Origin: Macrostomum lignano | Taxonomy: Eukaryota | NCBI GenBank assembly: GCA_002269645.1 | Contig: NIVC01001070.1 | Coordinates: forward strand, 1 to 64,000 | Length of the DNA: 64,000 bases | Direction: 5' to 3' | Shown here: positions 1,236-58,460 of the stretch, one piece after another | How the letters are laid out: each line of letters begins with the position of its first letter | Position numbering within the stretch: position 1 is the stretch's first letter | The notes under the pieces: model-generated | What the model was told of the DNA's origin: nothing | The model's database searches: none | Seen by the model: the letters and a program-made list of their open reading frames with translations, nothing else | Program-made: the position numbers and the translations under genes

Positions 1236-1254
1236 GGATTTGGCATCTTCAATC

Positions 1255-17300: not shown

Positions 17301-17694
17301 GCTATAAATCAGACAGTTTCAAACGCTAACTGTTCCTCGAGTTTTAAACTTTGAGAGGAGAAACTTATATTGCTGGCAAGATCTTGCAACGCTGAGTTCG
17401 GGGATATAAGTTGTTTGCTTTAAATATGAAAAGAAAAAGCACAGCATTTGAAAAACTATTTCCATACTTTTAACTTTCTGCAAAGATTGTACTTTAATCT
17501 GCAAAGATTGTTGGGGGGAGGGTTCAACTTCTCACTGCTGCTGTGTATTGGAGGGTTGATTTAGATTGCGCAATGTTTTTGTTAACTTTACCTGAGGCTG
17601 ATACTGACTGACTGTGAAATCGGTTGCGCAATGAATTGATTCAATTAGTTCAATATTTTTATCTGTGCCTTTTAACACGAAGCTGTGCGTAGTT

Positions 17695-17734
17695 CTAACC
17701 CTAACCCTAACCCTAACCCTAACCCTAACCCTAA
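17695..17734 (+). repeat. Interstitial telomeric-type (CTAACC)n tract, the longest of ten; others at 699-722, 3454-3477, 4667-4690, 7410-7433, ~9958-9975, ~12418-12452, ~14888-14911, 16200-16229 and 21393-21416
   Basis: About 3 to 6.7 copies of the TTAGGG complement, mostly in the flanking context GTAG(T/C)TC...AATGAAT. Two short opposite-orientation copies lie at 20278-20291 and 24019-24032. Confidence 0.95.
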
Positions 17735-34076: not shown

Positions 34077-34846
34077 TCAGCGGCGGACAAAGAAGTCGCC
34101 GCTGCTGGCGCTGCTGAGCGCGGCCGGGACCGCAGCGAACTCCAGCAGGTGGCACAGGCGCTGCAGCTGGCTAAAGATCACCGCTTGGCAACCGGAGCGA
34201 CACCGGTACAAGCACTCGGGCAGCCCAGCACACTGCAGTGTTCTGAAGGCGGGCGCATCCGGGAAGCTCAGCTCAACGAACGTCCGGTTACCGGGGACGA
34301 ACACGTTCCGGTCTGCAGATGTAGAATGGGGCCAGTTGCATTAACACCAAAGATTTCTACACAAAAAGCAAATTTTACTTTTAACCTACTCATGCAAGCG
34401 TCTTCTGAACTGCCCGTGTAACTCAGCCGGAGCACCCGGTTTCGAAATTCGCCTCCGCAGTTCTGGCCCCAGTTCCCACCGCAGACATGGCCGCACTCCC
34501 AGTAAGGAGCAGCGCCCAGCGACCCGTAGGAGTTGCCGCAGTGGCACCAGAATGCCGACTGCAGTGCCGCGAACTGGAAGCCGCCCAGAGCGCAGACGCT
34601 GCTGCACAGCTCGTGAGTCATCTGGCTGCTGCCGACAAAAGCGGTACCGGATTCGTATACCGGAGATACCTCGGAGCTGCCAATCCGGGTGATGCCAACG
34701 TTCTTCATGTCACTGACGGCTCTCGTTCCATTCGTGTATTCAAAGAAGCAGCCGAGATCCGAGATGTGGAACTGGCGGCAGAGAGCGGCGCAGATGAGGC
34801 AGCTCATGATCGGAGCGCAGAAGCAGGTCCTGTACAGAGCCGGCAT
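34077..34846 (-). CDS. Secreted WSC-domain plus PAN/Apple-like domain protein, 230 aa; complement(join(34077..34312,34390..34846))
   Basis: Hydrophobic, Cys-rich N-terminus, then WSC motifs (LGCFFE...MTHELCSSVC...FAALQSAFWCHCGN...CGHVCGGNWGQNCGG). A 77-nt GT-AG phase-1 intron (34313-34389) joins in frame to a C-x3-C...C-x2-C...VIF...CHL PAN/Apple-like exon. Confidence 0.8.
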
Positions 34847-36181
34847 GGCAGGCTGATTTCCAGTGCGATTTTCAGAGAAAATTGGCGGAGTTCGGACTCA
34901 AAGTAGAGAGAGAGCGGATTCGCAGCGAGAGGCCTCATCGCAGCTGTTTCAAGCGTATTATATTTGCTAGCACAGAGACAATGGGCCTTCAATACAGAAC
35001 CCATGACGGGTTCGCACAGCCGCGCGAGCCCTGATTGGAATCCGTTGGCTGCAGCCATTGCGTCAAAGCCAACAGGTGTGAATGAAAAATAGATTTAAAT
35101 CCATGAATTCCTGGGCTGCAGTTTCAGAAATATTTGCAGCAACAAAGCTTGCTGTGGGCCCTTCATCAAGGATGAGTTAGCACATATGAAATAACTGAGC
35201 GTCTAATTCAGACGCACAAGGATTTGTTGCACACCTTTGCGGCTCGCATATACTCGCGTTAGACGAGGCCAAGTAAGAAAAAAAGGGAAGTGAAGTGGCG
35301 CGCTTTATTCACTATAAATAATTTACATAATATAGAGAGAGCGATCGAGACAGTCCAATCAGAGGCTTCTGACGGACTGGTGCAAGGATTTTGCTAGAAC
35401 TAGAACCTGGACTAGAAACTTTTTTGTGGGGGCGAACTATCTTAGAAATAATAGGAAATTACTCGATCATATACGGCCCTGTTTGCACTTGCAAAACAAG
35501 TTCATTAGGTACCGAACCAAATGGTAGGGTATTCTACAGGTATACTTACACAATCCATACTGATACCCACAAAGAACGGAAGAAAAGACCCCAACTTGGA
35601 TCAACCAAGTTCTTCGAAAACTCTTCGATATATTTCTGAATTATAAGAATAGAATAGAGGCAAAATTTGTGTTGCAAACCGCCGTAGACAACACGAGTAA
35701 TATTCAGGGCACAACACATTTTGTTGACGAGGCCCACAACCAAGAGCATGCACTAAAAAGAATCGGATGCTACCACCGCGAGTCAGCTTGAAATACAATT
35801 AAAACAGCACCCAAATACCACAGTGACTCGTTCGATGGTCCTGAAAAGCACATCGACTGTAGGACTGTAGGTCCGAATTCGAAAATCCCCACATTTCCGT
35901 CCTATTCACCGTCTAATATTTTCGGGGGGACTTAAACTAAGCGATTCAAAATATTCCACGATTCGTCTTCCGCGACGACCAAACTCGTTTGCTACTCACC
36001 CCTTACTATCCAATGCCTACAAGGAAGCTTCGAAGTGTCTGTATCTAAGGTAATCGTCGAAGACCTCTGAACGTGTCCTGAGGATGCACACCCAAAAAGA
36101 CAACACCAAACAATCCCATACATAGATTTTTAATAATTGACCGCAAAAATCTATCACTGACACCCTGCAACATATTCAGCT

Positions 36182-36503
36182 TCACTTCCATGCTGTACCC
36201 GGCACGACGTCGCGAAGCTCCGTGATCTGCAGCTGCTTGTCAAATAGACAGCCGAATATTAAATTGTAGACAACGCTTGTTGCTTGAGCGAAGCATCCCA
36301 TCATGACACCCATCATATCGTCCTTGCAGATACAAGCCCAACTGCTGCAGCAGATAGGCATATTCTTTGAGACAACTACCTGCACCAAAATTCGTCTGCA
36401 GATCTGCAGTCTGCGAAGGGACGGACGCTTTATTCACAAACACACCAATGCTGTTGACATTTGCATGTTCAAAATTGAACTGATTTGTATCCATACTTAA
36501 CGC
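36182..36503 (-). pseudogene. Decayed C-terminal fragment of a second, divergent Polinton major capsid gene
   Basis: TNQFNFEHANVNSIGVFVN...EYAYLLQQLG aligns with HNPFNFEPFGADSVALYKD...EYAMLLKSLG of the intact MCP. After a deletion/frameshift, FAQATSVVYNLIFGCLFDKQLQITELRDVV* aligns with FSAALAAGINVLVFGYFDNTVQITRGRQVI. Confidence 0.7.
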
Positions 36504-36529
36504 TCTCCTCAGCTTGAAAGGCTGTACAC

Positions 36530-36965
36530 CGAGTTTAACTGCCGCTCCAGCGTAGCCGTCAGCGTCCAAGTCTCGGCGTAGGACGGTTTCGACCACCGCC
36601 TGCCACATCACTGAGCCTTCTGGCGGTCGGGCAGCGCTTCGGACTGGAGGACGGCTCGGATCGAACGGAAAGCCGCCCAGGCAAGTCCTCTGCGCCGCCG
36701 GACGTCCTTTCTAATCGTGGGGCACCACACCGCCGAGGTAGGTAACCGCTGGCAGCGTGCGAGCTTGATCGTTTGCCCGTCTGCGCCGCGGCAAGTCAGG
36801 TCCGCTGGGATGTCGGCCGGCAAGAACATTCAGCACCTCAATCTTCAGGGTGATGAAAACCAGACCGACGCTCGATGCCACCTCGACCAGCCTGCCGATT
36901 TGCTGCTGAGCGTCTTCAACGGACGAGGACAGGAGGGCGAGGTCGTCGGCGTAGCCAAACACGTT
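36530..36965 (-). pseudogene. Non-LTR retrotransposon (RTE-like) reverse transcriptase fragment, frameshifted
   Basis: YADDLALL catalytic motif, YLGG motif, then DVRRRRGLAWAAF...QAVVETVL thumb-region motif, spread over three frames. Confidence 0.85.
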
Positions 36966-37552: not shown

Positions 37553-37684
37553 AGGTTCATGTTGAGAAGGATTCACATTGAGAAGGCTTCATGTTGAGAA
37601 GGTTTCATGTTGAGAAGGTTTCATGTTGAGAAGGTTTCATGTTGAGAAGGATTCATGTTGAGAAGGTTTCATGTTGAGAAGGAT
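37553..37684 (+). repeat. 16-bp satellite (CATGTTGAGAAGGTTT)n, left part (about 8 copies)
   Basis: Period 16 (GAGAAGG at 37564, 37580, 37596); interrupted by the Polinton-like element. Confidence 0.95.
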
Positions 37685-38279
37685 ACTACGTAACGCGTAG
37701 ATTGTTGTTGATTTTGGAGGTGAGGTGGGTGTCAGAGCCAATGCAAATTCAACGCCTATCTAAATACATTAGACCGATTCTAATTGGTCCAGAGTCATTA
37801 TGTGAGACATTTATACTCTCATGTAAAATCTATACATGTAATCAGTGTACACTGTATCGTACAGCAGCGACGAGTACAATATAGTACGCATAATTAGCGC
37901 TTCACAGTTGTTGTACGCAGAAGCGCGCGCGCCCCCATCCCCACACAATGCAGCATTGGTGTACGCAGAATTAACTGTCCATATTAACTGTCCATATACC
38001 AAAAATTGGCAGAATTAGAGCGCCCACCCACCCCATAACTGTCCATATTATTACTTGTCCATATTTACTGTCCATCCCAAAATTGGTGTACGCGCAGAAT
38101 TGTAGCGCCCGCCCACCCCATAACTGTCCATATTATTACTTGTCCATATTTACTGTCCATATATACACCCAAAATTGGTGTACGCACAGAATTGTCTGTG
38201 ACCCCCACAAAATTGGCGGCCCCACGCGGAGGCATGATGAGTCAGTCAGCCAGTAAATCGCCGCTGTCCACCCCTCTGC
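37685..38279 (+). repeat. Left terminal inverted repeat (595 bp)
   Basis: Reverse complement of 47318-47827, plus an internal ~85-bp tandem duplication (~38010-38186). Confidence 0.95.
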
Positions 38280-38868
38280 CCTGCGCTGGCCGCTATAGCT
38301 ACCTGCAGCAGTGTTACGCAACAACCCGGTCGAGCCACAATGCTAACTTTATAGCCAGACACGTCATCAAGGTCTGAAAACACAAACTTCTATGCATGAA
38401 ATATTCTCGTTTAACAAGATGCCAAACCAATTTTGTTCAGACAGCAAACTATAAATAAGAAAATTTGGATTCTCGGCCGTTTATCTAAATTCACCAAGTT
38501 CAATTAACAACCCAATCATGTGGAAAACGCAGTGTTGACAAGCAATTTTTGGTTGCCAAAGCACAAGAGGATCAGACCGACAAAGCATGAACTGCCAACA
38601 ACTTGGAGCAAGGATTTCAACACACCTCCAACGCCAGCACCGAAAATAGGTACAAGTCTCATTTTTTCTGGAATCCTCGATAACGACAACACCGTAAAAA
38701 GCTCGTTAACATGTAATTAAAACAAAAACTTATTGAGACTCTCGGGTATATAAGCACCAACCCGGAGCACCAAGCACCCGTACCTGCAAATTTTTCTCGT
38801 ATTCTCGGCAGTTTTTCAAGCTCGAATAACATCCCCACCACTAGTAGTGCGAACAACGCAGCAAGTGC

Positions 38869-39375
38869 TTGACAAGAAATGAGCTGGATTTCCAGAGACT
38901 ACCCCTATTATCGAACGAGGAAAAAGACGAATATGAGGCCTTGAAAAAATCTGCTGACTGGTTGTGCATTTGCCACAGCAAACCGATTTCCGAGCGATTA
39001 GTCACCTTCAATGCCAAGGTCGAGGAAATTGATCAAGGCCCCTACGACAGCCAAGACTACGCAGCAGCCAGGATAAATGAGCAACTACGGGACAAAATGA
39101 GATTCAAAGCTGATTTAGCACGAATGGAGAGATTACTGGCTCCGATACTAAGTGAAGAGCATCGCCAAAAAATACGTTTTCGGAACCATCAAGATCTGTA
39201 TAATCCGTCGTGGGAGGAGCAACAAAAGATTTGGAATTTTTGGCTGCCAAAGCACAAGAGGAACAGGCCGCCAAAGCTTGAACTACCAGCAACTTGGAGC
39301 AAGGATTTCAGCACACCTCCAACGCCAGCACCCGAAAATAGGAACAAAAGGTTCATTTTTCCGGAATCTCGATAA
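38869..39375 (+). CDS. Element ORF1, unknown function (no in-frame ATG start; possibly a fragment)
   Basis: 168-codon open frame with protein-like composition inside the element; its 3' part is duplicated at 38544-38700. Confidence 0.45.
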   Translation: MTRNELDFQRLPLLSNEEKDEYEALKKSADWLCICHSKPISERLVTFNAKVEEIDQGPYDSQDYAAARINEQLRDKMRFKADLARMERLLAPILSEEHRQKIRFRNHQDLYNPSWEEQQKIWNFWLPKHKRNRPPKLELPATWSKDFSTPPTPAPENRNKRFIFPESR

Positions 39376-39507
39376 CGACAACTCTGTAAAAAGCTCGTTA
39401 TCGTGTAATTAAAACAAAAACTTATTGAGACTCTCGGGTATATAAGCACCAGCCCGGAGCATCTGCAAGCGCCCGTACCTGCAAATTTTTCTAAACAGAC
39501 AAGAGAC

Positions 39508-40259
39508 ATGGAGACAGTGCAAGACTTCAACTGCGTCAAGCGAGAGCTGCTGGCACTCAAACCGCGAGGTCCGAGCTTCAACGGGGTTGAAACGTTTGAC
39601 ATTGAATATGACGAACAGGGACCTCTCTACTTGGCCAATGCGGTCCCTGTTTTGATCGTCAAGGGCGTGCGTACTGACAACGAAGGTCGCGAATTCATCA
39701 TCATTGCACAAAAACACATTGAAGCTGCATACCCTACACTTTCAACACTGTGGCGGAGCACCTTTCCAGCGAAAGTCTAGCTCTGCTGGGCTACAACCCA
39801 GCGTTTGGAGGTGACAGTGCAGCGTTTGGGCTGGCTCACGACTTTAAAATGTACGACCAAAACGGACTGCCTGTAGAGGATTACAAAAACAAGAGCGGCT
39901 ACTACAGGATTCTGTTTACTCTCGACACGGCCGTGATTCGAGACGCTGTTTTGACCGCAATGCCAAAAATTCAACAGCTACAGTTTGTCGAAGAAGCCAA
40001 ACAGGCATTCGATCGTTGCTATTGGACGCCACCTCCAAAAATCAAGGTAGGCGCCAAGAAAGTAAGCAAGAAAGCAAAGAAACCACCAAAGCTTGTCAAG
40101 GAGAAGCAGCCAAAGGTGCCTAAAAATCAGGCCAGAAAGCGACAGCATCAATCGAAACTAGTAGCAGCCAACGAATCAAAGAAGCGGTCGAAAGCCCCCA
40201 AGAAGGATACGAAAGTAAAAACTGCCGAAAAATCTACTTGCAGAACGTCGAGTGTGTGA
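39508..40259 (+). CDS. Element ORF2 split by a -1 frame change (39508-39780 and ~39723-40259); possible OB-fold ssDNA-binding protein with Lys-rich tail
   Basis: ATG 70 nt after a TATATAAG box; the two frames overlap at 39723-39780. The C-half FKMYDQNGLP...KSGYYRILFTLD...PKIQQLQFVEE has a beta-strand pattern resembling T7 gp2.5/NCLDV-type SSBs (by eye only). Confidence 0.45.
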
Positions 40260-40717
40260 ACCGAGTGTTTTGCGCGAAATGGAGCCGCATGCCTGACTTG
40301 GACTGGGCGAGCGCACGGACATTTCGCAGACCAAGAGCTCTTATCAATTTGCGAATAGGAAAATGTACAATCAACTTTTTTCAGCGTTCTTTGTCTGCAA
40401 TTGTATTCGGTTGTCGCTCAGTCAACCAAGTTTTGCGTCTTTTTCCTCAATGTAAACCAATTTCTGTTGTTGTTACCACTAGTACTTACCGCGCTGAAGT
40501 AGACAGATGGCCAAACTTTTTCCAAATTGCATACTCCGGGTCCCGCTGGGTGAAGTGGGAGTGTGAAGTTTTCAATGGAATAGTAATAAAGTCTCCATTT
40601 CGCAATGCTAAATGTTTATTATGCGGAAAGAATGGCCGCCTTGTTTTCCTTGGAATACGAAACTTTAAAGAGCTCTGTCAAATGTACGATCATGTGACTA
40701 GCGTTTTGCATGTCTAA
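40238..40717 (+). CDS. Divergent TATA-binding-protein-like (two-repeat TBP fold) protein
   Basis: Collinear match to the TBP core: LQNV~LQNI; [28 protein letters not shown]~[41 protein letters not shown]~[38 protein letters not shown]~[26 protein letters not shown]. First ATG at 40289; the frame is open from 40124. Confidence 0.7.
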   Translation: [159 protein letters not shown]

Positions 40718-40857
40718 TCCATGTAGCTGTTGCGTAACTTTACTGCTTTACCACTGTACCGAATTTGTATGTACGTACAAGCTGCTATGAAATTGTCTAT
40801 AAATATATTGTGCATAAATTGCAGTGCACTGCAACCAACATCTTTTTGCTAAACAAA

Positions 40858-41214
40858 ATGACAAACGGAATCTCCAGACTATGTTCTTGTCGCGGCGAGC
40901 TCGCAGAGCTCGCCAAAGCCCGTCCCGCTCTTCGGCGGGCCATTATTCGAGGTGCAGGCAAGGAACTGATTCATTGTCTCTGTGAATTGAGTCACAACGT
41001 GCTCCGGGGAAATATCGATCTTTCTCCGAAACAGTATCTGCGATTAAAGCGATACAGAAGATCGTTGCGTGAATTGGCAGACACAAAATTGTCTATAAAT
41101 AGGAAGAAGAATATGCTTCTCTCGAATCCTCAAGTCGGTGGCTTTCTACCCATCCTTGCATCTGTTGCTGCACCGCTAATATCAAGCCTGTTTGGCGGAC
41201 TACTTGGTCGCTAA
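40858..41214 (+). CDS. Small basic virion-associated protein with Gly-Gly adenain-type cleavage sites (118 aa)
   Basis: ATG at 40858 after CTATAAATA; Arg/Lys-rich middle; C-terminal QVGG|FLPILASVAAPLISSLFGG|LLGR hydrophobic peptide of the kind seen in Polinton small core proteins. Confidence 0.75.
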   Translation: MTNGISRLCSCRGELAELAKARPALRRAIIRGAGKELIHCLCELSHNVLRGNIDLSPKQYLRLKRYRRSLRELADTKLSINRKKNMLLSNPQVGGFLPILASVAAPLISSLFGGLLGR

Positions 41215-41215
41215 A

Positions 41216-41866
41216 ATGAATAAATACGTTGTTGTACCAGAAGAAGAATTTAATAGACTAAGTCAAGGCGCACCCCGAGAAATTGCATCCAAAACAGAAT
41301 ATGAAAAACTCATTGAATACAACACTCAACTCCAAAATAAACTAAGTCAGATCAAGCAAAAGAAGAGTAATCGTTTTCCTGAACGACAACAACGTGTTTG
41401 GGACATGCTGACAGAAAGATACCCAAATTTGGAGTACAACAAGTCGTGGGAAATTGTATTTGATGGAAAAACCTGGCCAGGAAGCAATATTTTCGATCTA
41501 TTGAAGGAGATTACATCGAATGAAAGGCGCGACCGCCCAAGCCCAAAATATAGTACCGCTTTTTGGGCCCTGGCCGAAGAGGCAGATATTGCAAAAGCTC
41601 TACTAGGACGACGCCAACAAGAAGAAGTCAGTGTGAAAAAAGAAGTCGGCACGGATCCGGATCGAGACGATTTTTTAGTCGAGCAAGCAATTGGAACTAA
41701 TGATTTCTACAACGACTTCCACAAAGACCAAGCCAGTGGCCTGAATGAAATTAAAAAATATGAAGATCGTGGCAGCAATGCCTACAGGCATGCTTCATAC
41801 CAACTTCGCGAACCAAAGAGGCGGCAGAAACCAGCAGTAAAATACGAGACGTTAAAAAAACTATAA
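41216..41866 (+). CDS. Polinton-type accessory protein, unknown function (216 aa)
   Basis: ATG 2 nt after the previous stop; KYVVVPEEEF N-terminus, coiled-coil, and a PGSNIFDLLKEIT motif of the kind seen in Maverick accessory ORFs. Confidence 0.7.
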   Translation: MNKYVVVPEEEFNRLSQGAPREIASKTEYEKLIEYNTQLQNKLSQIKQKKSNRFPERQQRVWDMLTERYPNLEYNKSWEIVFDGKTWPGSNIFDLLKEITSNERRDRPSPKYSTAFWALAEEADIAKALLGRRQQEEVSVKKEVGTDPDRDDFLVEQAIGTNDFYNDFHKDQASGLNEIKKYEDRGSNAYRHASYQLREPKRRQKPAVKYETLKKL

Positions 41867-42003
41867 ATAGAAATCATTTTCATGATTTATAATCTGTTTT
41901 TGGATCATGGGTGCCGCAGCTGTAACTTCAAAGCTTTGCTCAGACAAACCGTCTGTGGAGTTCAAGTGTAATTACTCATGCTGTGCATCGAATCTAGTTG
42001 CGA

Positions 42004-43071
42004 ATGAGGGTGAAAACCGCTCTTCGGAGAGTGTACGAACAGGGGGACGCCGCTTTTACAAATGCTGCCCGTGTATATCAGGAGGCCAAACGGCTGGTCC
42101 CCTCCCTGACGAGACGCCAAACAGACGAATGGCTGAAGACCCAATCGAGCTACACCCGGCACAAGAGGGTTAAAAGAAAATTCCGAACCGGAAAAGTAAT
42201 GTCGGGAGGCTTCATGGAAACTGTGCAAGCGGATTTGATGGACATGTCGCGATACGAACAATGGAATGATGGTCATCGATATATTCTAGTTGCAATTGAC
42301 GTGCTTAGTAAATTGGCTTTTTGTCAGTCAATAAAATTGAAAAGCGACACTCCAAAGGCTTTTGAAAGCATGATCAAAGACTTCCCCATTAAGCCTTTAT
42401 ATCTACACGTTGATCGAGGTACCGAGTTTTATAACAATCGCATGCAGAACTTACTGAAAGCCCATAATATCAAAATGTACAGTACAAACTCTGTATACAA
42501 GGCAAATATGGCTGAAAGGCTGATTAGGACTCTCCGAAAACGTTTAGCTCGCTACTTTGAGCATAAAAACACGTGGCGTTGGATCGACTATTTGCCAATA
42601 TTGGTTAAAAGTTACAACAACACAGTACACTCTACTATTGATATGAAACCTTCGAGTGTCGGTCTGCACAATCAAAAAGAATTGTGGGAAAAGCTCTACA
42701 AGGATCCTGAATATGATGAACCAGTTTACCAAAAAGGGGACTTTGTCAGAATTTCAAAATCTCGTCGAGCCTTTGACAAGGAAGCATACGATATGTACAG
42801 CGAAGAAGTTTACGTTGTGTCTCAAGTATGCCCGGGACCGCCTCATTTTTATCGCATTTCCGACCTATCTGGAGAACAAATCGAGGGTCGATTCTACTAT
42901 AATGAACTTTCAAAGACGGTTCGACCGGACCGCTTTGTTATAGACAAAATTCTGCGTCGCAATGTCATCATCAATGGTGTCGCTCATCATTTCGTTAGTT
43001 GGCGCGGCTATCCCGAGTCGTTCAATGCATTTGTACCAGTTGAGGAAGTTATAAATATAAGACAAGGATGA
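42004..43071 (+). CDS. Retroviral-like (RVE, DDE) integrase with C-terminal chromodomain-like region (355 aa)
   Basis: Catalytic QADL..., HVDRGTEF and AERLIRTLR motifs; YNNTVHSTI; C-terminal IDKILRR...FVSWRGYPESFNAFV. Confidence 0.95.
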   Translation: MRVKTALRRVYEQGDAAFTNAARVYQEAKRLVPSLTRRQTDEWLKTQSSYTRHKRVKRKFRTGKVMSGGFMETVQADLMDMSRYEQWNDGHRYILVAIDVLSKLAFCQSIKLKSDTPKAFESMIKDFPIKPLYLHVDRGTEFYNNRMQNLLKAHNIKMYSTNSVYKANMAERLIRTLRKRLARYFEHKNTWRWIDYLPILVKSYNNTVHSTIDMKPSSVGLHNQKELWEKLYKDPEYDEPVYQKGDFVRISKSRRAFDKEAYDMYSEEVYVVSQVCPGPPHFYRISDLSGEQIEGRFYYNELSKTVRPDRFVIDKILRRNVIINGVAHHFVSWRGYPESFNAFVPVEEVINIRQG

Positions 43072-43105
43072 ACACACATACACTCGAAACGTGTAGTATA
43101 TTACA

Positions 43106-44260
43106 ATGCATCTATTCCTACCTAGCAATGCGTGCGTTGAGCACTATCCTGAGAATAATTCGGCACATTATAGCATTAATTTGCCCGACACCCTCCACTT
43201 TCCGAATCATGAAGTCTGCATCGAACGGATCTACTTTTGTAAAGAATTCAAAACCGTCCCCGATAATCGAATGGTTGATGTCCTGACCAACGCTCCCGAG
43301 GATGAAGTGATTGACATTGAGGTGAGAGAAAAACCCGCCTCCACGTATAAACAGTTTGCGTCGGTTTCTCTCGCCGCGGGGCTATCAACAGCCAACGAAG
43401 TGGTTGATGCAATCATCGCCGATCTAAAATATGAGCAAGACGATAATGCGATGATTTGCATTGAGCGTTCACAGGAAGGCCAAATTTCAATTGTGAACAA
43501 ATCATGGTATGGTGCGAACATTAGGCTGTCCAGTAATGTGCGTAGCATGTTTAAAAAGGTTGATGACGCTGGAAATAAATCAAATATCGAAGTAACGACT
43601 TTTTTATTAAACCCAAGAAATTCGTTAGTATTCGCTATAGAATTGGAGTCCTCCTCCTCCATAGAGAGTCCGATGACTCTAACGTTTGAAAAGAGTGTCT
43701 GGCCTTCTAGAACGTCACTGCGGATTGCTAAAGGATTCTACCGCACGCCTGATGAGCTCTTAAATTATGTTAATGGAGCGCTTTGGGGCGTCGTTTCAAA
43801 GCTCCCAATAAGTCCAGCGACGAGAGTGGATGCATTCCGCTACAACCCTTTTCTGAACCGGTGTGAGTACAAACCCATTGAAAACATTTTATTCGACATT
43901 GGAGAGCTTGCTGCCATTCTCGGCTTTCGCGAAGATGTTTTCAATGAAACTCCAAAGACCGCTAAACGACCAATCGATTTAACAAATGGTGTACAAACTA
44001 TGTACATCTATTCAAATATTGTCGACTCTGCCATTGTTGGAGACGTCAAAGTCCCCCTGCTTGGGGCAATTCCTTTGAATGAAAAGGTATACGGCGAACG
44101 AGAGTACTACGAGTTTGTCAATCCATCCTACTTACCGTTGGTGAAACACCCATTCAAAACCATTGAGGTGCAAATCTGTGACGATATGGGCAAGTTAATG
44201 GATCGGATTCTTCGAGGCAAAACTGTTTTATCGATCAACATTCGTGAAATTAAGCTATAA
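43106..44260 (+). CDS. Minor capsid protein (penton, single jelly roll), 384 aa
   Basis: N-terminal LFLPSN...YPENN...YSINLP and C-terminal YIYSNIVDSAIVGDVKVPLL...YLPL...IEVQICDDMG motifs typical of Polinton pentons; sits between integrase and MCP. Confidence 0.85.
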   Translation: MHLFLPSNACVEHYPENNSAHYSINLPDTLHFPNHEVCIERIYFCKEFKTVPDNRMVDVLTNAPEDEVIDIEVREKPASTYKQFASVSLAAGLSTANEVVDAIIADLKYEQDDNAMICIERSQEGQISIVNKSWYGANIRLSSNVRSMFKKVDDAGNKSNIEVTTFLLNPRNSLVFAIELESSSSIESPMTLTFEKSVWPSRTSLRIAKGFYRTPDELLNYVNGALWGVVSKLPISPATRVDAFRYNPFLNRCEYKPIENILFDIGELAAILGFREDVFNETPKTAKRPIDLTNGVQTMYIYSNIVDSAIVGDVKVPLLGAIPLNEKVYGEREYYEFVNPSYLPLVKHPFKTIEVQICDDMGKLMDRILRGKTVLSINIREIKL

Positions 44261-44304
44261 ATAAAGAAGTTTTCACGAATAAAAGGTAGCAACTGATCGA
44301 CAAT

Positions 44305-44673
44305 ATGCCTTCAATCTTGATCGGAGGAGCTTTACCGGTATTTTCCGGTGCACAGCGCGGCAACGGCCTGTTTGGCAGCATTGCCCGATTTGCCCTGCCA
44401 ATTTTAAAGAGTTTTGGCAAAAATATTCTTCGCCACGGAACACGAGCCCTAGCTACAACAGTTAGCGACACACTCGATCAAGGCGGGAACTTGAAAGAAG
44501 CGGCATTGCGTAACTCTGTCCAGGCAGCTAAAGATGCTTTCAAGGACACAGTCGCACAACGAGGTAGCGGCAGACAAAGACGAAGAAAGATGACTAACAA
44601 AAAAACGAGAAAAAGACTGCAGCATTCTGATATTTTCGACTCTATAAATAAAAAAACCCGTGCCAATAACTGA
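44305..44673 (+). CDS. Small core / membrane-active precursor protein (122 aa)
   Basis: LIGG|A and QRGNG|LFGSIARFALPILKSFGKNIL amphipathic segment; Arg/Lys-rich C-terminus QRGSGRQRRRK; lies directly upstream of the MCP. Confidence 0.75.
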   Translation: MPSILIGGALPVFSGAQRGNGLFGSIARFALPILKSFGKNILRHGTRALATTVSDTLDQGGNLKEAALRNSVQAAKDAFKDTVAQRGSGRQRRRKMTNKKTRKRLQHSDIFDSINKKTRANN

Positions 44674-44716
44674 TCTGTCTATTAGAGCACCACACTAAGC
44701 CGCTGTTGAATGAAAA

Positions 44717-46000
44717 ATGACTGAGTGCCTGTGTACAAAGTCGGAATTCGAGCTTTTTGCTCCTCGCGCACACCAAATTGCTGCAATTAGCGCCACCACT
44801 GAAGAAGTTCACCCTGTTGCCAGTGTTGAAAATGCCAGCGTGGTCGAATTTAGGATTGTTGGTGGTGAGACGTTTATCGATCTTAACGACATTGACCTCG
44901 AGATTAAGGCCCGCGTTAAGCAGTCTAATGGTACAAATCTTGCTGCTGATTCGAATGTTGCGCCGGTCAATTACGTCCTTGAAAGCATGTTTAAAAACGT
45001 CACGTTGACAATCAACGGGACACACGTAGAGTCGAGCAATAACAACCACGCTTACAAGGCCTATATTCTCACGTGTTTGAATTACGGACACGATTCAAAA
45101 ACTAATCAACTGAGAATGATGGGCTACGCAAAGGACGCTGGAGGTCAAATGGCTGTGGTTGGAAATCCTGGCTTTGTAGCCCGCAAGGCGATGGCGGCAA
45201 ACTCACGCACCTTTCACCTTTATGGACCTCTTAGTTTAGACTTTTTTGTTACCAACGACCGAATGCTACTGCCATACACTGATATGGTAATTACGCTGAC
45301 CATGCACAATTCCGGCTTCGTTCTGGAAAACCACGCGGACGGGGTTGATGCGCGGCTAGTACTCGAGAGTGCCAAACTACATGTGCGCCGCGTCAAGGCA
45401 AACCCCCAATTGGCATTGGAGATTGAAGAACAACTAGGCAAACAGAATGCAATCTATCCGATTGAGCGACTTGTTGTGCACAATACTTCAGTGGCTGGCG
45501 GTGTTCGGGACATGTCAATCAATAATATATTTCCTGAACAAAAGCCTAAACTAGTGGTTGTTGGCATGGTGAACAGCGGCGCATACAACGGTGTGGCTAC
45601 ACATAACCCGTTTAATTTTGAACCGTTTGGGGCAGACAGTGTCGCTCTGTATAAGGACGGAGTCAGTCTGTGTGGACAACCGTTTACTCCTCGATTCGGT
45701 GTTCATAACTATGCTCGCGAGTATGCCATGCTACTAAAAAGCCTAGGAAAGATGAATCGGGACCTTGATATTGACGTATCATATTCCGACTATGGAGCTG
45801 GCTACTGCTTCTTCGCCTGGAATCTCATGCCCGACATGGAGCTGGGCGGGCATAGCATGCCTCGCGAGCGAGGGAATCTGACGCTACAAATAAAGTTTTC
45901 TGCTGCCTTGGCCGCAGGAATCAACGTGTTGGTGTTTGGCTACTTTGACAATACTGTGCAGATCACTCGCGGTCGTCAGGTTATTCTAGACTACGTGTAG
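44717..46000 (+). CDS. Major capsid protein (double jelly roll, hexon-like), 427 aa
   Basis: SEFELF...HP...VEF...FIDL N-terminus; PKLVVVGMV...AYNG...NPFNF...YAREY...GYCFFAWNL...G.L.L.IKF motifs of Polinton MCPs; uninterrupted ORF. Confidence 0.92.
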   Translation: MTECLCTKSEFELFAPRAHQIAAISATTEEVHPVASVENASVVEFRIVGGETFIDLNDIDLEIKARVKQSNGTNLAADSNVAPVNYVLESMFKNVTLTINGTHVESSNNNHAYKAYILTCLNYGHDSKTNQLRMMGYAKDAGGQMAVVGNPGFVARKAMAANSRTFHLYGPLSLDFFVTNDRMLLPYTDMVITLTMHNSGFVLENHADGVDARLVLESAKLHVRRVKANPQLALEIEEQLGKQNAIYPIERLVVHNTSVAGGVRDMSINNIFPEQKPKLVVVGMVNSGAYNGVATHNPFNFEPFGADSVALYKDGVSLCGQPFTPRFGVHNYAREYAMLLKSLGKMNRDLDIDVSYSDYGAGYCFFAWNLMPDMELGGHSMPRERGNLTLQIKFSAALAAGINVLVFGYFDNTVQITRGRQVILDYV

Positions 46001-46050
46001 AAACAAACATCTCTTTTTTATTCTCGAATAACGACCATATTCATGCCGAT

Positions 46051-46500
46051 ATGAATAGTCTAGATATATTAGAACGTCTAATACTACCTGTCCCTGTTCG
46101 AGTAACACCAGTTGACAGGATTCCGCAGCCTGTTTATCCTGCTGCATACGTGATTAACTTTGACACTGGCAATCTACCAGGCACTCACTGGGCTTTAATT
46201 TGTCTTCATGCCGATGAGAGCGTGACATTTTTTGACCCCTTGTGTATCGATCCTGTGCCAGATTTATTAAAGTTGTGGATCGCAAAGTATGTCCCTGTGG
46301 AGGTGGCCATGAACCGGCATCCTGTACAGCATCAGCTAAGTGTGACCTGCGGGGCTCATGTAATATTTGTGGCTGAAAAACACTTTCTGGAGGGTCTGTC
46401 AATTGAAAAAATATTGCGCGACTGTTATAGCACAAATCTTTACGAAAACGACTTGATGGTGCAGAATCACTGTCTACAAATAAAGCAGCATCATCCATAA
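46051..46500 (+). CDS. Adenain-like (clan CE) cysteine maturation protease, 149 aa
   Basis: INFD...GTHW (His), FFDP (Asp), QHQLSVTCG (oxyanion Gln, catalytic Cys). Confidence 0.92.
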   Translation: MNSLDILERLILPVPVRVTPVDRIPQPVYPAAYVINFDTGNLPGTHWALICLHADESVTFFDPLCIDPVPDLLKLWIAKYVPVEVAMNRHPVQHQLSVTCGAHVIFVAEKHFLEGLSIEKILRDCYSTNLYENDLMVQNHCLQIKQHHP

Positions 46501-46502
46501 AT

Positions 46503-47153
46503 ATGATTGGGCTGCCTATCAAAATGTATCAAACAATAGACCCCGACTCTTTAAAATTTGCCCCCAAAACGTCGGCAATTTTTGCTGGGGTGGCTCAAAG
46601 CGGCAAGACCACACTTGTGAAAAACCTATTGAGACAAGAATTTTTTCAAGATCCGAAGCCGATTCGCGTAGACTGGTTTGGCCACTATCCGGATCCTGAA
46701 CTGTTTGAATTGCCGTACCCTGTAAATTTTCGTTCGTGTACATTTGATCCTGAACAATATGTCCCTGAACCAAATATTCTGCTTGTCGTCGACGACCAAA
46801 TGCATGCCATGGAAAAGAGTGGCGCTTTTACAACTTTTTTCACGCGCAAAGTCTCCCACGTGGGGTTCCGACTTTGGTATCTTGTGCAAAACCTGTTTGC
46901 AAAGGGTAAGGAGCACCGAACTCAGTTGCTCAATTCGAACTACCTTGTTTTATTCCGCAATGTACGGGATGCCAGCACAGTGTCTCATATTGCAAGGCAG
47001 CTGGTCCCCACTAATCCAAAAAGTTTTGTCAAAACGTATGAGGATGCTACTCGCGACCCCTACTCATACTTGATTGTAAACTGTTTGCAAAATGCTCCTG
47101 CTCGCTATTATTCAAACGTTTTGGGTCGTCACCCAATTGTGTATGCTAAATAA
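46503..47153 (+). CDS. A32/FtsK-like genome-packaging ATPase, 216 aa
   Basis: Walker A GVAQSGKTT, Walker B LLVVDD, YLVQN and LFRNVRD motifs, and a terminal PYSYLIV motif. Confidence 0.93.
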   Translation: MIGLPIKMYQTIDPDSLKFAPKTSAIFAGVAQSGKTTLVKNLLRQEFFQDPKPIRVDWFGHYPDPELFELPYPVNFRSCTFDPEQYVPEPNILLVVDDQMHAMEKSGAFTTFFTRKVSHVGFRLWYLVQNLFAKGKEHRTQLLNSNYLVLFRNVRDASTVSHIARQLVPTNPKSFVKTYEDATRDPYSYLIVNCLQNAPARYYSNVLGRHPIVYAK

Positions 47154-47317
47154 ATATACGTATCAAAGTTCGGCCGGCTTTTTGTGTAAATATATATACG
47201 CCTTTTGAAAACTTATTTGGGAGAGGGGTTGGGGGATGACGTAATTGTCTCGGAGTGTCGACGAGGGCTGAATTCTAGAGGGATGGAGTATGGTGTGAGT
47301 GGAAATAACAGGCTGCA

Positions 47318-47827
47318 GCAGAGGGGTGGACAGCGGCGATTTACTGGCTGACTGACTCATCATGCCTCCGCGCGGGGCCGCCAATTTTGTGGGGGTCACA
47401 GACAATTCTGTGCGTACACCAATTTTGGGTGTATATATGGACAGTAAATATGGACAAGTAATAATATGGACAGTTATGGGGTGGGCGGACGCTACAATTC
47501 TGCCAATTTTTGGTATATGGACAGTTAATATGGACAGTTAATTCTGCGTACACCAATGCTGCATTGTGTGGGGATGGGGGCGCGCGCGCTTCTGCGTACA
47601 ACAACTGTGAAGCGCTAATTATGCGTACTATATTGTACTCGTCGCTGCTGTACGATACAGTGTACACTGATTACATGTATAGATTTTACATGAGAGTATA
47701 AATGTCTCACATAATGACTCTGGACCAATTAGAATCGGTCTAATGTATTTAGATAGGCGTTGAATTTGCATTGGCTCTGACACCCACCTCACCTCCAAAA
47801 CCCAGCAGTTTTGGCGCGATACGTAGT
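47318..47827 (+). repeat. Right terminal inverted repeat (510 bp)
   Basis: Reverse complement of the left TIR without the 85-bp duplication. Confidence 0.95.
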
Positions 47828-48648
47828 AAGGATTCACATTGAGAAGGCTTCATGTTGAGAAGGATTCATGTTGAGAAGGTTTCATGTTGAGAAGGCTTCA
47901 TGTTGAGAAGGATTCACATTGAGAATGCTTCATGTTGAGAAGGCTTCATCTTGGGAAGGTTTCATGTTGAGAAGGTTTCATGTTGAGAAGGCTTCATCTT
48001 GGGAAGGTTTCATCTTGAGAAGGTTTCATGTTGAGAAGGCTTCATGTTGAGAAGGTTTCATCTTGGGAAGGTTTCATGTTGAGAAGGTTTCATCTTGGGA
48101 AGGTTTCATGTTGAGAAGGTTTCATGTTGAGAAGGTTTCATGTTGAGGTTTCATCTTGAGAAGGTTTCATGTTGAGAAGGCTTCATCTTGGGAAGGTTTC
48201 ATCTTGAGAAGGTTTCATGTTGAGAAGGTTTCATGTTGAGAAGGCTTCATGTTGAGAAGGTTTCATCTTGGGAAGGTTTCATGTTGAGAAGGCTTCATCT
48301 TGGGAAGGTTTCATGTTGAGAAGGTTTCATGTTGAGAAGGCTTCATCTTGGGAAGGTTTCATGTTGAGAAGGATTCATGTTGAAAGGTTTCATGTTGAGA
48401 AGGCTTCATCTTGGGAAGGTTTCATGTTGAGAAGGTTTCATGTTGAGAAGGTTTCATGTTGAGAAGGTTTCATGTTGAGAAGGTTTCATGTTGAGGTTTC
48501 ATCTTGAGAAGGTTTCATGTTGAGAAGGCTTCATCTTGGGAAGGTTTCATCTTGAGAAGGTTTCATGTTGAGAAGGTTTCATGTTGAGAAGGCTTCATCT
48601 TGGGAAGGTTTCATGTTGAGAAGGCTTCATGTTGAGAAGGTTTCATCT
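47828..48648 (+). repeat. 16-bp satellite, right part (about 51 copies)
   Basis: Same unit as 37553-37684, with CATCTTGGGAAGG variants. Confidence 0.97.
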
Positions 48649-49260
48649 GTGTTGCGAGGATCTTGAATCAACTCCCATGGACTGAATGGCATGGCTGAAG
48701 TCGAGTGAGAACTGCTTCAGAGAGCCCGTGGCTCTGGCTTGCTGTCACAGCTATTAATCACATAATACCTGGCATAAAAAGCCACTCCAACTGCCTGGCT
48801 GTAGTTGACATTGTTTTCTACTGGTCTGGCCAAGGCAGAGTGAAAAGATTTTAATTGAATTTCAGTGATAATATTCTTAATTGAATCATTTGTTAAGTCG
48901 TATTTTTGATATAGCTTCAGAATTTTCGAAGTCGATTCTTCTAAGACAATTTAATACTGATAGTAGTACGCTCGTACTTGAGACGCATTGCATGCAGAGC
49001 TATATGCAGTCAGCAGATGCACAAATAAAATCAGTGGTAAATTTTCTTGTCCTCAATTTATTTCAAATTGTTTTATCTAACCATAAGTTGGAAAATATGG
49101 GAAGCTACTCAGACGAGCGTAAATAGAGAAATTAAAACGTAACGCTATAATGAGAAAATTCTGATTAACAGTAGGAATACCAAGCCATTTTCCCATCCGT
49201 CAAACTACCAAGAGGGGGGATTCCCTGACAATTTTTTTGCTGTGCAGCAACGGAGCAACG

Positions 49261-50675
49261 GGTCTATGAAATTTGCTAGCAGGAAATCTGCTAGCCGAAG
49301 TTTGCTAGCGAGAAATTTGCTTGCCGAAATCTGCTAGCCGAAGTTTGCTAGCCGAAATCTGCTAGCCGAAATTTGCTAGCCGAAGCTTGCTAGCGAGGAT
49401 TTTGCTAGCCGAGATTTGCTAGCGAGAAATTTGCTTGCCGAAATCTGCTAGCAGGAATTTTGCTGACCGAACTTTTTGCAACTGGCGTCAAAAGATTGCT
49501 TGTTTTCTGGCAATGGCAATGCATTGTTTTAGCTAAAAAAAATCCAGAGAAGTGGGTAAAAATCCCAAATATTTTATAACTAAAAGCATCAGCATCAGTT
49601 CAAGTGCTTGGAAAGTCAGTTTGTCATTGTGGGGGACAGAATACTCTCAAGTCGCAATCAGATAGCTCGTAGTTAGGACAGTATTTGAATTCCTTACTGA
49701 ACTGTCATGGCTAAACGTTAGCAGAGAAGGCTATAAAAAGTTATTCCAAAACACTGTACATTTGCTATGTACATTGAGCCCTATCACCTGATCCTTGGTC
49801 TGGGGGAATGAGTGAGTGAGTAGCACAAACAACAGAAAAAGCAGACAAACTTCACATGCCTATAGTTTCTGTTCTAACTGAGGTACAAAGTTGAGACTAT
49901 ATTTAGACAGAGAATGAGTCAATGAAGAATTGTATCAAGTTTGAAGTCAATCGCTGTACGTGGAGCAAACTTATGGCAGCTGAAAGTTAGTTAATTTTAA
50001 ACCCCCTTCACAAATCTGTCCATTGGTCAGGAAGGAGAGAGGCGGAGGTTGGGATGGCTGTCTCGCTGACGAAAAGCAGACTAACTTTAAAAGTACACAG
50101 ACCATTTTCCAGCGGGAGTGCCGTTAGGAATTAACTTCGAGACTCGAAACTTTATACACGCGGATTATCAAAATGGTTGAAAATTGGATTGTGTCCAATT
50201 TGAAGAGGATTGGTAAAGGTAAAAATGGAGCGACGCTATGGAGGATTTAGTGAAATTCTTGCGAAACTGGACAAGCAAATTGTCTCTAAGCTAATTACTA
50301 CTTCCTGAGTTCGGCTAGCCAAATTGCTGCTTGCCGGTTTTGGTTGGATTCCTGCTAGCAGATTTCGGCTAGCTAAATCCTCGCTAGCAAAATTCCTGCT
50401 AGCAGATTTCGGCTAGCTAAATCCTCGCTAGCAAAATTCCTGCTAGCAAGCTTCGGCTAGCAAATTTCGGCTGGCAGATTTCGGCTAGAAGATTTCGGCT
50501 AGCAAACTTCGGCTAGCAGATTTCGGCAAGCAAATTTCTCGCTAGCAAACTTCGGCTAGCAGATTTCGGCAAGCAAATTTCTCGCTAGCAAACTTCGGCT
50601 AGCAGATTTCGGCAAGCAAATTTCTCGCTAGCAAACTTCGGCTAGCAGATTTCCTGCTAGCAAATCTCGTACTCC
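49261..50675. mobile_element. Non-autonomous Mutator/foldback-type element with repeat-built TIRs
   Basis: GG...CC ends; inverted arrays of (AAATTTGCTAGCCG)-like units at 49268-49470 and ~50320-50666; flanking direct repeat CGGAGCAACG / TGGAGCAACG (9 of 10 identical). Confidence 0.75.
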
Positions 50676-51226
50676 TGGAGCAACGTAAGGACAGAAAGTC
50701 CTGCCTCAGCATATGTGGTGCGACTGCATGCCTTGGGGGACCGCAGAAAAGAGGGGCATGGGTTGCAAAAACGAAGAACGGTACCACCTGATTATGTTCG
50801 GTTAAACGTCCATACAGTATATATCAACGGTGGATATTTTGTTTCGAGGCATGCAAACTCAGAAAAGGATAAACCTGGCACAATTACTAAAAATAAAAAT
50901 GCATCCATGCAACTGCAAATAATAAAGATCAATCGGTCTGCTTAATTATAGGCAATAAATACATTTGGGTTTAATTCTAAATATAATAATCCTTGATATA
51001 ATATAGTCTTTGGATTGGATTCATGATCGATCGAATTTGCAGGGCATCCATGCACGATCGGAGCTAGAGAATGGCATTGCAATGTGTCATAAGATCTAGA
51101 GATGGGCCTTAACTGGGTTACGAAAGCATTACATAGAAAAAAGAGTGTTGCCTTAATTACAATGTAATGTTGGCCTCATCCAGTTCCCAGAAATGTAAGG
51201 AGTAACAGTCACTATACAGACCCAAT

Positions 51227-56400: not shown

Positions 56401-58460
56401 ATCTGTCACCTTACTGGGGTCTTTGGGAGTGCATGGCGAGCCCTGTGATTAAGAAATGTAGGTAAACAAAAATGACATGACAGACATGACATGGCTTGGT
56501 TAAAGACTTAAAGTCTAGTTTAGACTAATGAGACTAATGCTGAAGATTGGGGCATGTGTTAAGGTAGAGTGCAAGATTCATGGTTAGTAATTTGAACATT
56601 TTAAATAGTGCAGGTTGAAAATTATTTTAAGGTATAAAACAAGTCAACAGTATCTATAAAAGACTTGAATTCCAACCACATGTTTGTCTTTATATAATTG
56701 AAACTTTACAAACTTTTATAAGAGAAATTTAATTAAAAGGCATGATTTTAAAATAGTACAATTCATTTTTTGTATGAATTTTTAGGAATTTTGGGAATAC
56801 ATGATAATAATCAAGTTTTATGAAGATCTACAGATTTTAGGAATACCAGAAAATGATGTTAATTAGGTAACTTTGCAAGGTTTTGTAGCTTGTTACACTT
56901 ATCATACACTAACAAAAATGACTATAACTTAAATCAAGGCTAAAATTTTTTTTTACCAAAAATATCACTTTACAAGCATCTTGAAAATTGATACAACAAC
57001 TTTTTGTAAAAAATGATGGTTGTTTTTAACACTAAAAAGGGGAAGTCCAACTTTTTCAATTTGAAAATTATGATAAATAGAAATATATATTAGATCATAA
57101 AAAAATTATAATTCCAGTCTTTAGATATAATAAAGAAATATTATTATTATATTTATGTACTAGATGAATTACATTTATGACTTAATTTTCCTAATGAAAA
57201 CCAGATTAACTTTTTATAATGTCCCACAGAACATAAAAATCATGCAGGGGTACTATGATCAAAACAATAATATAAACCTAGAAATAGATAAATATGTATA
57301 AAACTACATAAACATGAAACTATATATAATTATATGCAAATAAAAATATTCACATATGCAAAAAATGAAAAAAAATTCTATCCCTTTGATAACCCTATCA
57401 TGGAATTACCCAGATAGTCTACTAGAGCCATCTTAATAGTTATATCTATTATTTTGCTCTAATTAGGCCAAGGAAAGAAAATGCAACCCATTTTAACAAA
57501 GGAATTTTTGGCAAAAAGCTTGATCACATCAGTTTGGTAAAAAGATAGTTATAATTGCAAATTTGCAAATAGTAGGCTTATTTATTTCTAAATACTACTT
57601 TAATAATTGTAGTTATAATTTTTTATGATTTTATTCTTTTATTAACACCTATTCTTAAAACTATGCTGGTGTTGCATCATTAATAAAATATCTATATTAA
57701 AATTGCTCTATTCAAACCAACAAGGATGTAGAATAGTGGTTCTTAACCCTTTTCCAGATGACCCTAATTTATTCACTTGCATCATTTTTTAATGTTTGAA
57801 ACCTTTTTTCAAATTCAATATAATGTATCATCTCATCAAGTTTTTGATTATTATTTCTTAGTGCTTCAACCCCCAGAAAATCATCATGCAACCCCACTGG
57901 GGGTTGGTCTCAAATCAGCAATCAATATTTTAATAGTATAGAATAGAATCAGCAATCAGACAGTCACTCAAATATGCTATATCACTATAGCTCAAAATTT
58001 ACAGTTAAATACTTGAAACTCAGTCTGAGTCTATTAAAAATGTGCTGGACTGCACTCATGACAAACTATTGATGAGAAAATTTATTTAATAAAGTCTAAA
58101 TATTTACTAAATTATTAGCTATTGACAATAAGTCATTCTCTAACTTTTATTAAATAGAAAAAACTCATTCATAAAAGTTCTTATGAAAAATTACATTAAA
58201 ACTGAAAAATAGCTGGTCATTAATTTGTCTTATTTTTGCTTTCTTCAATGTATCAAAACATTAAACGTCATTATAGACTAAGTAGTCATACATGCATGTT
58301 TCAATTAAAATTTTATCCCGGTAAATCATTGTAAATCTGAGTTTAATTTTATTATAGATACCAATAATAATGCATACTCATTCCATGGCTTGATAAGGAA
58401 TTATATTAAATTATATTAATAACATTCACATTATCTGTGTTGCTGCAGCAAAGCACTGCC

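Follow-up and report, generated by a model that had tools for sequence, protein, structure and literature searches.

Autonomous Polintons are defined by a DNA polymerase of family B that uses protein priming (pPolB; PMC5499653), and intact vertebrate Mavericks carry eight intronless open reading frames (ORFs) on one molecule (PMC8097293). Polintons or Mavericks (polintoviruses, adintoviruses) are elements of approximately 17 kb. Analysis of a 64,000-nucleotide stretch of the flatworm Macrostomum lignano (contig NIVC01001070.1 of assembly GCA_002269645.1, positions 1 to 64,000; hereafter the window) revealed a related element of 10,143 bp (37685..47827), which matched this group in its retroviral-type (RVE) integrase, double jelly-roll major capsid protein (MCP), packaging ATPase, maturation protease, 6-bp target site duplication (TSD) and long terminal inverted repeats (TIRs). 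A putative counterpart of the single jelly-roll minor capsid protein was similar and syntenic to the gene that complete relatives have between integrase and MCP. It differed in its size of 10 kb, in the absence of pPolB, in a TATA-binding-protein-like (TBP-like) gene, and in its ends, which read ACTAC...GTAGT instead of (AG)3 or (AGT)2; an AC-type end has been mentioned for defective Maverick copies in one fish (PMC8097293). Since it lacks the pPolB, the length of ~15–20 kb and the end motif by which autonomous Polintons are recognized, this element does not by itself qualify as one. Whereas the polymerase of Polintons lies on the same molecule, the one associated with the window element was found on a separate, intron-bearing element, and the two are likely mutually dependent halves of a split Polinton.

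Bidnaviridae (Bombyx mori bidensovirus) resemble such a system in that their genome comprises two linear segments, not homologous to each other and bearing inverted repeats, with a short common terminus and one pPolB. The segments share a 53-nt common terminal sequence, and the Polinton-derived pPolB lies on one of them (PMC4938981; PMC4061559). In contrast to the proposed split Polinton, bidnaviruses have single-stranded DNA and a parvovirus-derived capsid, no integrase is listed for them in the accessible text, and polymerase and major capsid are both encoded on VD1; in the flatworm system, polymerase and double jelly-roll capsid are on different halves, both of which are integrated. Vesanto virus is a multi-segment, bidna-like virus (PMC8363768). 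In the accessible parts of the adintovirus paper, "bipartite" is applied to bidnaviruses only (PMC8502044), and those of two recent reports (10.1101/2025.04.19.649669; 10.64898/2026.10.13.758929) contained nothing on a split Polinton. Within the literature accessible to the search, whose scope excluded Repbase and most subscription journals, no Polinton split into mutually dependent halves was found.

The boundaries of the window element were exact, with AAGGAT duplicated on both sides (junctions AAGGAT/ACTACG and CGTAGT/AAGGAT) in a host site consisting of a 16-bp satellite, in agreement with an earlier note on this DNA that had reported both TIRs and a perfect TSD. The TIRs, which that note had called near-identical, were so along their body (500 of 508 aligned bases equal, with 85 additional bases in the left repeat) and not at the outermost 31 bases, where the left and right ends differed at 11 positions; these differences are two alleles of a variable pool, not decay. 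Compared by eye, the left terminal 31 nt showed one mismatch to an end of a polymerase-only element on contig C157. The CpGs were indeed retained, with an observed/expected ratio of 1.02 inside the element vs. 0.68 and 0.51 in the flanks, and the six core ORFs (integrase, minor capsid, ORF122, MCP, protease, and ATPase) were unbroken, as claimed. The description of the element as fully tiled by identified ORFs failed for the left 3.2 kb, where the TIR is followed by a duplicated stretch of 250 bp and by accessory genes, of which two are frame-broken in this copy. That the element contains no pPolB was confirmed: its longest stop-to-stop frame was 428 amino acids (aa), which leaves no room for pPolB, 16 PolB queries of several types gave no match at E ≤ 1e-3 across the whole window, and a Pfam scan of 12 ORFs detected no polymerase, with sub-threshold P-loop matches all falling on the ATPase. 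No replication gene of any kind was found in the ORF list or the Pfam scan of the element.

Four families are distinguished in the following: A, the window-type capsid/integrase family; B, its sister family; and P-A and P-B, two polymerase-only families. An end-pattern search of the genome yielded 64 A-type ends (none with the reversed control), comprising 24 pairs and 16 single ends. Paired ends lay 7.6–12.0 kb apart, apart from a single rearranged copy of 14.4 kb (contig C1313), which holds two capsid genes and in which two right halves stand head to head. The interiors of 16 of the 24 paired elements were read wholly or partly, and no sibling that was read carried pPolB, the finding on which the earlier note had made its interpretation depend. 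When the 16 PolB queries were run against the window and 70 capsid-half loci, a single 56-residue match was obtained and nothing else. A 6-bp TSD flanked 10 of 11 coding A copies with both ends read, representing nine distinct sites. Identity to the window MCP across the genome was 79–100% (one degraded fragment at 60%) and then dropped to 31–33% among the best 98 of 539 candidates. A subgroup of four A copies contained a 650-bp insert, part of which stems in inverted orientation from the P-A polymerase region, with 78% identity in the two that were aligned.

Family B was colinear with A, with a length of ~10.5 kb and a DNA identity of 68–79%; its MCP was ~88% identical to that of the window element, below which only degraded fragments at 79% and 60% preceded the drop to 31–33% among the scored candidates. 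The genome contained 46 B ends (48 matches minus 2 overlapping). The 16 PolB queries found no polymerase in family B, and B was therefore rejected as the helper of A. Long B copies were rejected as complete elements, as their length was due to a transposon of the THAP/P-element type (C4), a non-coding insert (C2210) or a gene-less element (C56). Where A has a duplicated promoter stretch, B carries extra genes, namely a Fic/DOC-domain gene (PF02661) and a 117-aa ORF. Between A and B genes, the proportion of synonymous differences (pS) was 0.61–0.87, with dN/dS of 0.04–0.15 where finite and 0.33 for the minor capsid gene. Within A, the ratio of non-synonymous to synonymous proportions (pN/pS) was 0.11–0.40 for core genes and 0.43–0.64 for the left accessory genes. 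Since B has the same layout near synonymous saturation and under purifying selection, the polymerase-less layout is old and maintained, and the young deletion derivative considered in the earlier note was not supported.

The genome contained 119 matches to PF03175. The polymerase-only families came to light through one polymerase locus with an ACTACT end, 23 bases of which were identical to a family B end. P-A and P-B elements are 8.8–10.1 kb long and consist of long inverted repeats, a polymerase gene and ACTAC ends, and many copies are shorter and internally deleted. There were 69 P-A ends (72 matches minus 3 overlapping) and 226 P-B matches, 2 of the 100 listed being A ends. P-B ends were thus ~5 times as numerous as B ends, whereas P-A and A ends were approximately equal, so that segment ratios were uneven. 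Contig C157 carried four P-A polymerase genes, and on contig C1485 one P-A copy was nested in another; on contig C261 an A copy lay 826 bp from a P-B copy, and on contig C382 three end types occurred inside 9 kb.

When 31 loci of 16 P elements, 5 of which were covered whole and the others partly, were searched with 40 queries for integrase, capsid, protease, and ATPase taken from several types of Polinton, none was matched, while control loci of complete elements were matched in 4 of 6 cases. A 6-bp TSD was nevertheless found in 12/12 P-A and 6/6 P-B copies, indicating that an integrase acted in trans. A ends and P-A ends never occurred on the same contig when the two lists (40 and 45 contigs) were checked against each other by eye, nor did a P-A polymerase adjoin an A capsid gene among the scored candidates (the best 40 of 468 in the P-A polymerase search). 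The gene sets of A and P-A are thus complementary, a pattern repeated by B with P-B; both halves were inserted independently at many sites and both are under purifying selection. In the polymerase gene of P-A, pN/pS was 0.11–0.13 in 6/6 within-family comparisons. Between P-A and P-B, its pS was 0.69 and its amino acid identity 63–64%, a synonymous depth equal to that between A and B, as expected if the pairs co-diverged.

The P-A polymerase looks functional, with exonuclease and polymerase motifs distributed across public gene models, no single one of which shows all. Database polymerase models at least 90% identical to a gene of this genome bear the label Macrostomum lignano. Its gene was interrupted at fixed places, and contigs of runs X1, X5, and X6 skipped four GT..AG stretches of 74–81 nt. 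Two of the spliced joints were seen in X1, X5, and X6, one in two runs and one in a single run; none of the four was seen in X14. GT..AG was kept at two of these intron places in both P-B copies checked. Polymerases of complete elements in the genome formed single frames of 1,000–1,478 aa. Upstream of the polymerase, two minus-strand ORFs of ~338 aa and ~177 aa were present in P-B, and short ORFs of another kind in P-A; those scanned gave no Pfam match above cut-off.

The sequence shared by A and P-A was confined to the terminal 31 bases; similarity stopped at base 31 and the remainder was unrelated. B and P-B likewise shared only their terminal 31 bases. End diversity was 0.36 at bases 9–27, compared to 0.02 at bases 1–8 and 0.14 at bases 53–120, and all four gametes occurred in 83 of 136 column pairs of the hypervariable stretch. 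Hairpin (flip-flop) ends were rejected as the source of this variation, as more than two alleles per column were present (by eye). The two ends of one copy were usually identical (12/12 in P-A), the window copy being among the exceptions. In a sample of 36 A, 30 P-A, 19 B, and 13 P-B ends, the mean 31-nt distance was 7.7 between A and P-A, close to that within A (7.2) and within P-A (8.0), and 9.8 between B and P-B, vs. 15.1–15.9 in the four cross comparisons. Positional 6-mers in common numbered 85 for A/P-A and 66 for B/P-B, and 1–4 for cross pairs. Exact matches to a P-A end were found for 4 of 26 A haplotypes, a fraction that is not random because four P-A elements were picked after their matches had been seen; in the full end lists, 4 of 32 A haplotypes recurred among P-A ends (by eye). 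A ends start with ACTACG and B ends with ACTACT. All five complete elements with ends read started with AGTAGT (AGTAGT...ACTACT), while P elements had ACTAC...GTAGT ends like A and B. Gene-less, largely palindromic elements of 7.6–8.7 kb with A ends occurred on contigs C356, C816, C1705, and probably C1588, with a 6-bp TSD in 2 of 3, and a gene-less B-ended element of 18.4 kb with internal tandem repeats and a 6-bp TSD was found at C56:643541-661960. Such gene-less elements indicate that the ends alone suffice for mobilization in trans.

These observations make it probable that two Polinton halves depend on each other, with P-A replicating both and the window-type half integrating and probably packaging both. 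The 31 common bases would serve as replication origin and as integrase attachment site. Excised linear forms of both halves would be copied by the terminal-protein/polymerase of P-A through protein priming, which is compatible with ends that start with a short repeat, as needed for jumping-back initiation. Panhandle copying would equalize the two ends of a copy, and co-replicating molecules would swap end alleles. The A integrase would then insert either half, and the A capsid would probably package both, either singly as molecules of ~10 kb or jointly. The alternative view of the earlier note, in which a separate lineage provides for its own integration and packaging and uses a helper polymerase, was thereby supported; of the "host or helper" enzymes it had proposed, the helper stood, as a polymerase-only element sharing the terminal 31 bases, and neither the host nor a complete Polinton did. 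Its term "satellite" captured the dependence on a helper and understated the case, since the polymerase-only partner is itself without integrase and capsid and the dependence looks mutual. Chances are even for a stronger interpretation, namely a truly bipartite integrating double-stranded DNA virus of an animal with a double jelly-roll capsid, comprising a replication segment and a virion/integration segment of ~10 kb each, both packaged by one capsid. This further includes a fast-evolving 31-base end code as the sole link, two co-diverged pairs, gene-less parasites, a polymerase with introns and the capture of a TATA-binding-protein fold.

Several points weigh against the interdependence of the two halves. 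The system is known here from sequence, and particles, free linear DNA and complementation are inferred from it. Bases 24–50 of the A end match P-B and not P-A, so that pairing was reshuffled or is not exclusive. Complete AGTAGT Polintons also vary at approximately bases 8–25 of their ends; hypervariability is therefore not special to the split system, and Polintons in general may have such a variable stretch near their termini. Of the paired A elements, 8 of 24 were judged by length alone (each at most 10.4 kb), 126 of the 226 P-B ends were unlisted, and the searches scored best candidates only. Many sibling copies contained frame breaks, in which decay and assembly error were not distinguished. 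The runs showing spliced joints (X1, X5, and X6, from three studies) are only presumed to be RNA, none being on record as such. Finally, the P-A polymerase barely aligned to the polymerases of complete elements with a syntenic capsid cassette (~40 bits), and scored under 30 bits against complete elements of the same genome.

Among the alternatives, the one that survives best, although unlikely, is a one-way dependence in which A uses the P-A polymerase while P-A spreads by other means, e.g., through an integrase supplied by complete Polintons, without ever being packaged; the two would then be associated elements and not a single bipartite unit. Integrase-bearing complete Polintons do exist in this genome, and both the ~5:1 excess of P-B over B ends and the A bases 24–50 common to P-B would be accommodated. 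However, complete elements have AGTAGT...ACTACT ends, P elements have the ACTAC...GTAGT ends of A and B, and the sole integrase found on an ACTAC-ended element was of the A/B type; moreover, the pools of end alleles followed the cognate pair in two lineages, and both halves are ~10 kb in size.

It is more doubtful still that host polymerases or complete AGTAGT Polintons copy A, with P-A a passenger that mimics A ends for integration and packaging, even though the genome is rich in complete Polintons whose polymerase frames are long and open (judging by the PF03175 matches). The A repeats shared with complete-element loci only short words at chance level, and the letter-identical hypervariable ends together with the P-A fragment in four A copies imply joint replication. 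Host enzymes are not known to use protein-primed jumping back. The short repeat with which the ends begin is suited to precisely that (PMC8097293).

There is only a slight chance that a complete Polinton or virus with ACTAC ends, still in existence but absent from the assembly, gave rise to A and P-A as defective forms that complement each other. Such a parent might have escaped an assembly in 5269 contigs, where search counts are lower bounds, yet a common parent predicts the same long repeats, and the resemblance of A to P-A ends at base 31. Furthermore, A and P-A ends never met on one contig of the lists compared, B and P-B are split identically at near-saturated distance, and homologous intron places in the P-A and P-B polymerases argue for a long evolution apart from single-frame polymerases. 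It is very improbable that an ordinary Polinton gave rise to the window element through a young deletion or through mis-assembly, although single Polinton insertions lacking polymerase have been reported from a butterfly (10.1101/2025.02.07.637071): nine distinct TSD-flanked sites have the same layout, MCP identity drops from 79–100% (one fragment 60%) to 31–33% among scored candidates, and family B repeats the layout at a pS of about 0.7.

The features of the window element and its surroundings are listed in Table 1. All genes of the element lie on the + strand. The ORF118–ORF216–integrase–minor capsid–ORF122–MCP–protease order was syntenic with that of complete Polintons from metagenomes, which have PolB and ATPase ahead of this block, and the ATPase at the 3′ end of the window element is relocated relative to them. 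By position, ORF118 is probably the PZ gene and ORF122 probably PW. Candidate D-D-E motifs of the integrase were located near residues 77, 137, and 171, with a weak chromodomain match at the C-terminus. Foldseek matches of the MCP model included iridovirus, PBCV-1, mavirus, and Sputnik capsids (E 1e-17 to 1e-13). In ORF175, the ATG equivalent to the family B start (near 38880) was in another frame, indicating a frame break near the 5′ end of the window copy. The following accessory gene was a single ORF of 236–258 aa in 11 of 14 siblings checked, and its 236-aa product had no match in Pfam and no usable match in Atlas.

Table 1. Coordinates of features in the window (positions refer to the 64,000-nucleotide stretch).
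Feature	Position	Strand	Remarks
Left TSD copy	37679..37684	+	6 bp, AAGGAT
Left terminal inverted repeat	37685..38279	+	
Left terminal 31 nt	37685..37715	+	Type common to P-A ends; positions 9–27 hypervariable
Duplicate	38544..38797	+	90% identical to 39235-39492 (ORF175 3′ end and next promoter)
Accessory gene ORF175 (predicted)	38848..39375	+	Function unassigned; conserved in family B (62% aa)
Accessory gene	39508..40259	+	Two overlapping frames in window copy
TBP-like gene	40229..40717	+	First ATG 40289; family B similarity starts upstream of it
ORF118	40858..41214	+	Conserved Polinton gene, just 3′ of ATPase in complete relatives
ORF216	41216..41866	+	Polinton gene preceding integrase in complete relatives
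Retroviral-type (RVE) integrase	42004..43071	+	PF00665 above cut-off
Minor capsid protein	43106..44260	+	Label from position and tblastn similarity to gene between integrase and MCP in complete relatives
ORF122	44305..44673	+	Small conserved gene before MCP
MCP, double jelly-roll	44717..46000	+	Model pLDDT 87.9
Adenovirus-type maturation protease	46051..46500	+	His, Asp, Gln-Cys motifs
Packaging ATPase	46503..47153	+	Walker A GVAQSGKT, Walker B LLVVDD
Seven TATAAATA boxes	38450, 40798, 41094, 41862, 43050, 44256, 44643	+	Coding strand only
Right terminal inverted repeat	47318..47827	-	
Right terminal 31 nt	47797..47827	-	Every letter same as P-A ends on contigs C997 and C4573
Right TSD copy	47828..47833	+	
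Large tandem duplications	1..23100		2–4 kb units, purine-rich tracts
WSC-domain ORF	34268..34897	-	Host-type
Decayed capsid and protease fragments	35754..36554	-	1.1 kb left of element; other, polymerase-bearing Polinton family (like C4619)
Inverted repeat array	49250..50690		Right of element; 14-bp units
DEAD-box helicase gene	58410..60424	+	Host-type; broken by 48-bp tandem repeat
Mab-21-like ORF	61962..63191	-	Host-type

The TBP-like protein was modeled with a pLDDT of 70 and gave 44 Foldseek matches at E ≤ 0.001, all to TBP or TBP complexes among the matches listed. Its relative P0072 exceeded the Pfam TBP cut-off, while an Atlas search gave no usable match and a PDB sequence search no match. 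Six of the seven TATAAATA boxes were located 49–142 nt before ORF starts, and their number compared to a mean of 0.17 and a maximum of 2 in 200 shuffles. From sequence motifs and the structural model, the TBP-like protein may drive or divert transcription from the TATA boxes of the element; that the protein and the TATAAATA boxes play a part in late transcription is conjecture.

Relatives of the MCP at 78–80% identity occurred in other datasets, and the named ones were animal. A viral-contig scan with the MCP yielded four pattern matches, none of which was confirmed. The metagenome scan yielded 180 confirmed loci, of which 80 were kept, all 28–38% identical; 26 loci of at least 5 kb were mapped, with a PolB match in 11 and none provably complete and polymerase-less. 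In MCP and integrase trees, A and B formed a clade without supported sister. Polinton-like viruses (PLVs) and Tlr1 are similar to the window element in having a capsid module without pPolB. PLVs mostly lack pPolB and RVE integrase and have another replication protein of their own, such as a helicase or primase, and Tlr1 has an RVE integrase and a replication gene (PMC11071308). The window element, in contrast, combines an RVE integrase with animal MCP relatives and no replication gene, and by this gene content it is not a PLV. Integration genes acting in trans have been suggested for an insect PLV (PMC11296320).

P-A differs from linear pPolB plasmids and transpovirons in that its integration leaves 6-bp TSDs, its exonuclease motifs have been retained, and its probable partner is a capsid element incapable of replicating by itself. 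Transpovirons depend on self-sufficient giant viruses. Non-autonomous Polinton derivatives are likewise moved in trans via common ends, as exemplified here by the gene-less A- and B-ended elements, whereas the window element keeps a virion and integration module under selection and had no autonomous parent among the copies examined. Butterfly Polintons without polymerase carry long interspersed nuclear element (LINE) or gypsy cargo alongside or instead of polB (10.1101/2025.02.07.637071). As in segmented viruses, the segments were complementary, and no self-sufficient full-length form was present within the assembly and the copies read. The synteny of the capsid cassette with complete Polintons fits fission of one ancestor, which is not established, since the P-A polymerase can hardly be aligned to theirs; fission with a later exchange of the polymerase and an alliance between two elements that had each been reduced on their own are both compatible with the observations.

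Polintons have been defined by polymerase and integrase on one molecule; if the two halves are indeed interdependent, a segmented genome would exist in a group of single-molecule viruses. To our knowledge, the origin of multipartite genomes from complementary defective forms is an open question, and the split Polinton would be a natural case of it, recorded in a genome. As the end allele is preserved in every integrated copy, genomes of this laboratory flatworm could be used to read off segment ratio, partner fidelity, and reassortment. The signal needed in cis for integration and protein-primed replication would be narrowed to ~31 bases. Polymerase-only and capsid-only "defective" Polintons in other assemblies would have to be re-read as possible partners.

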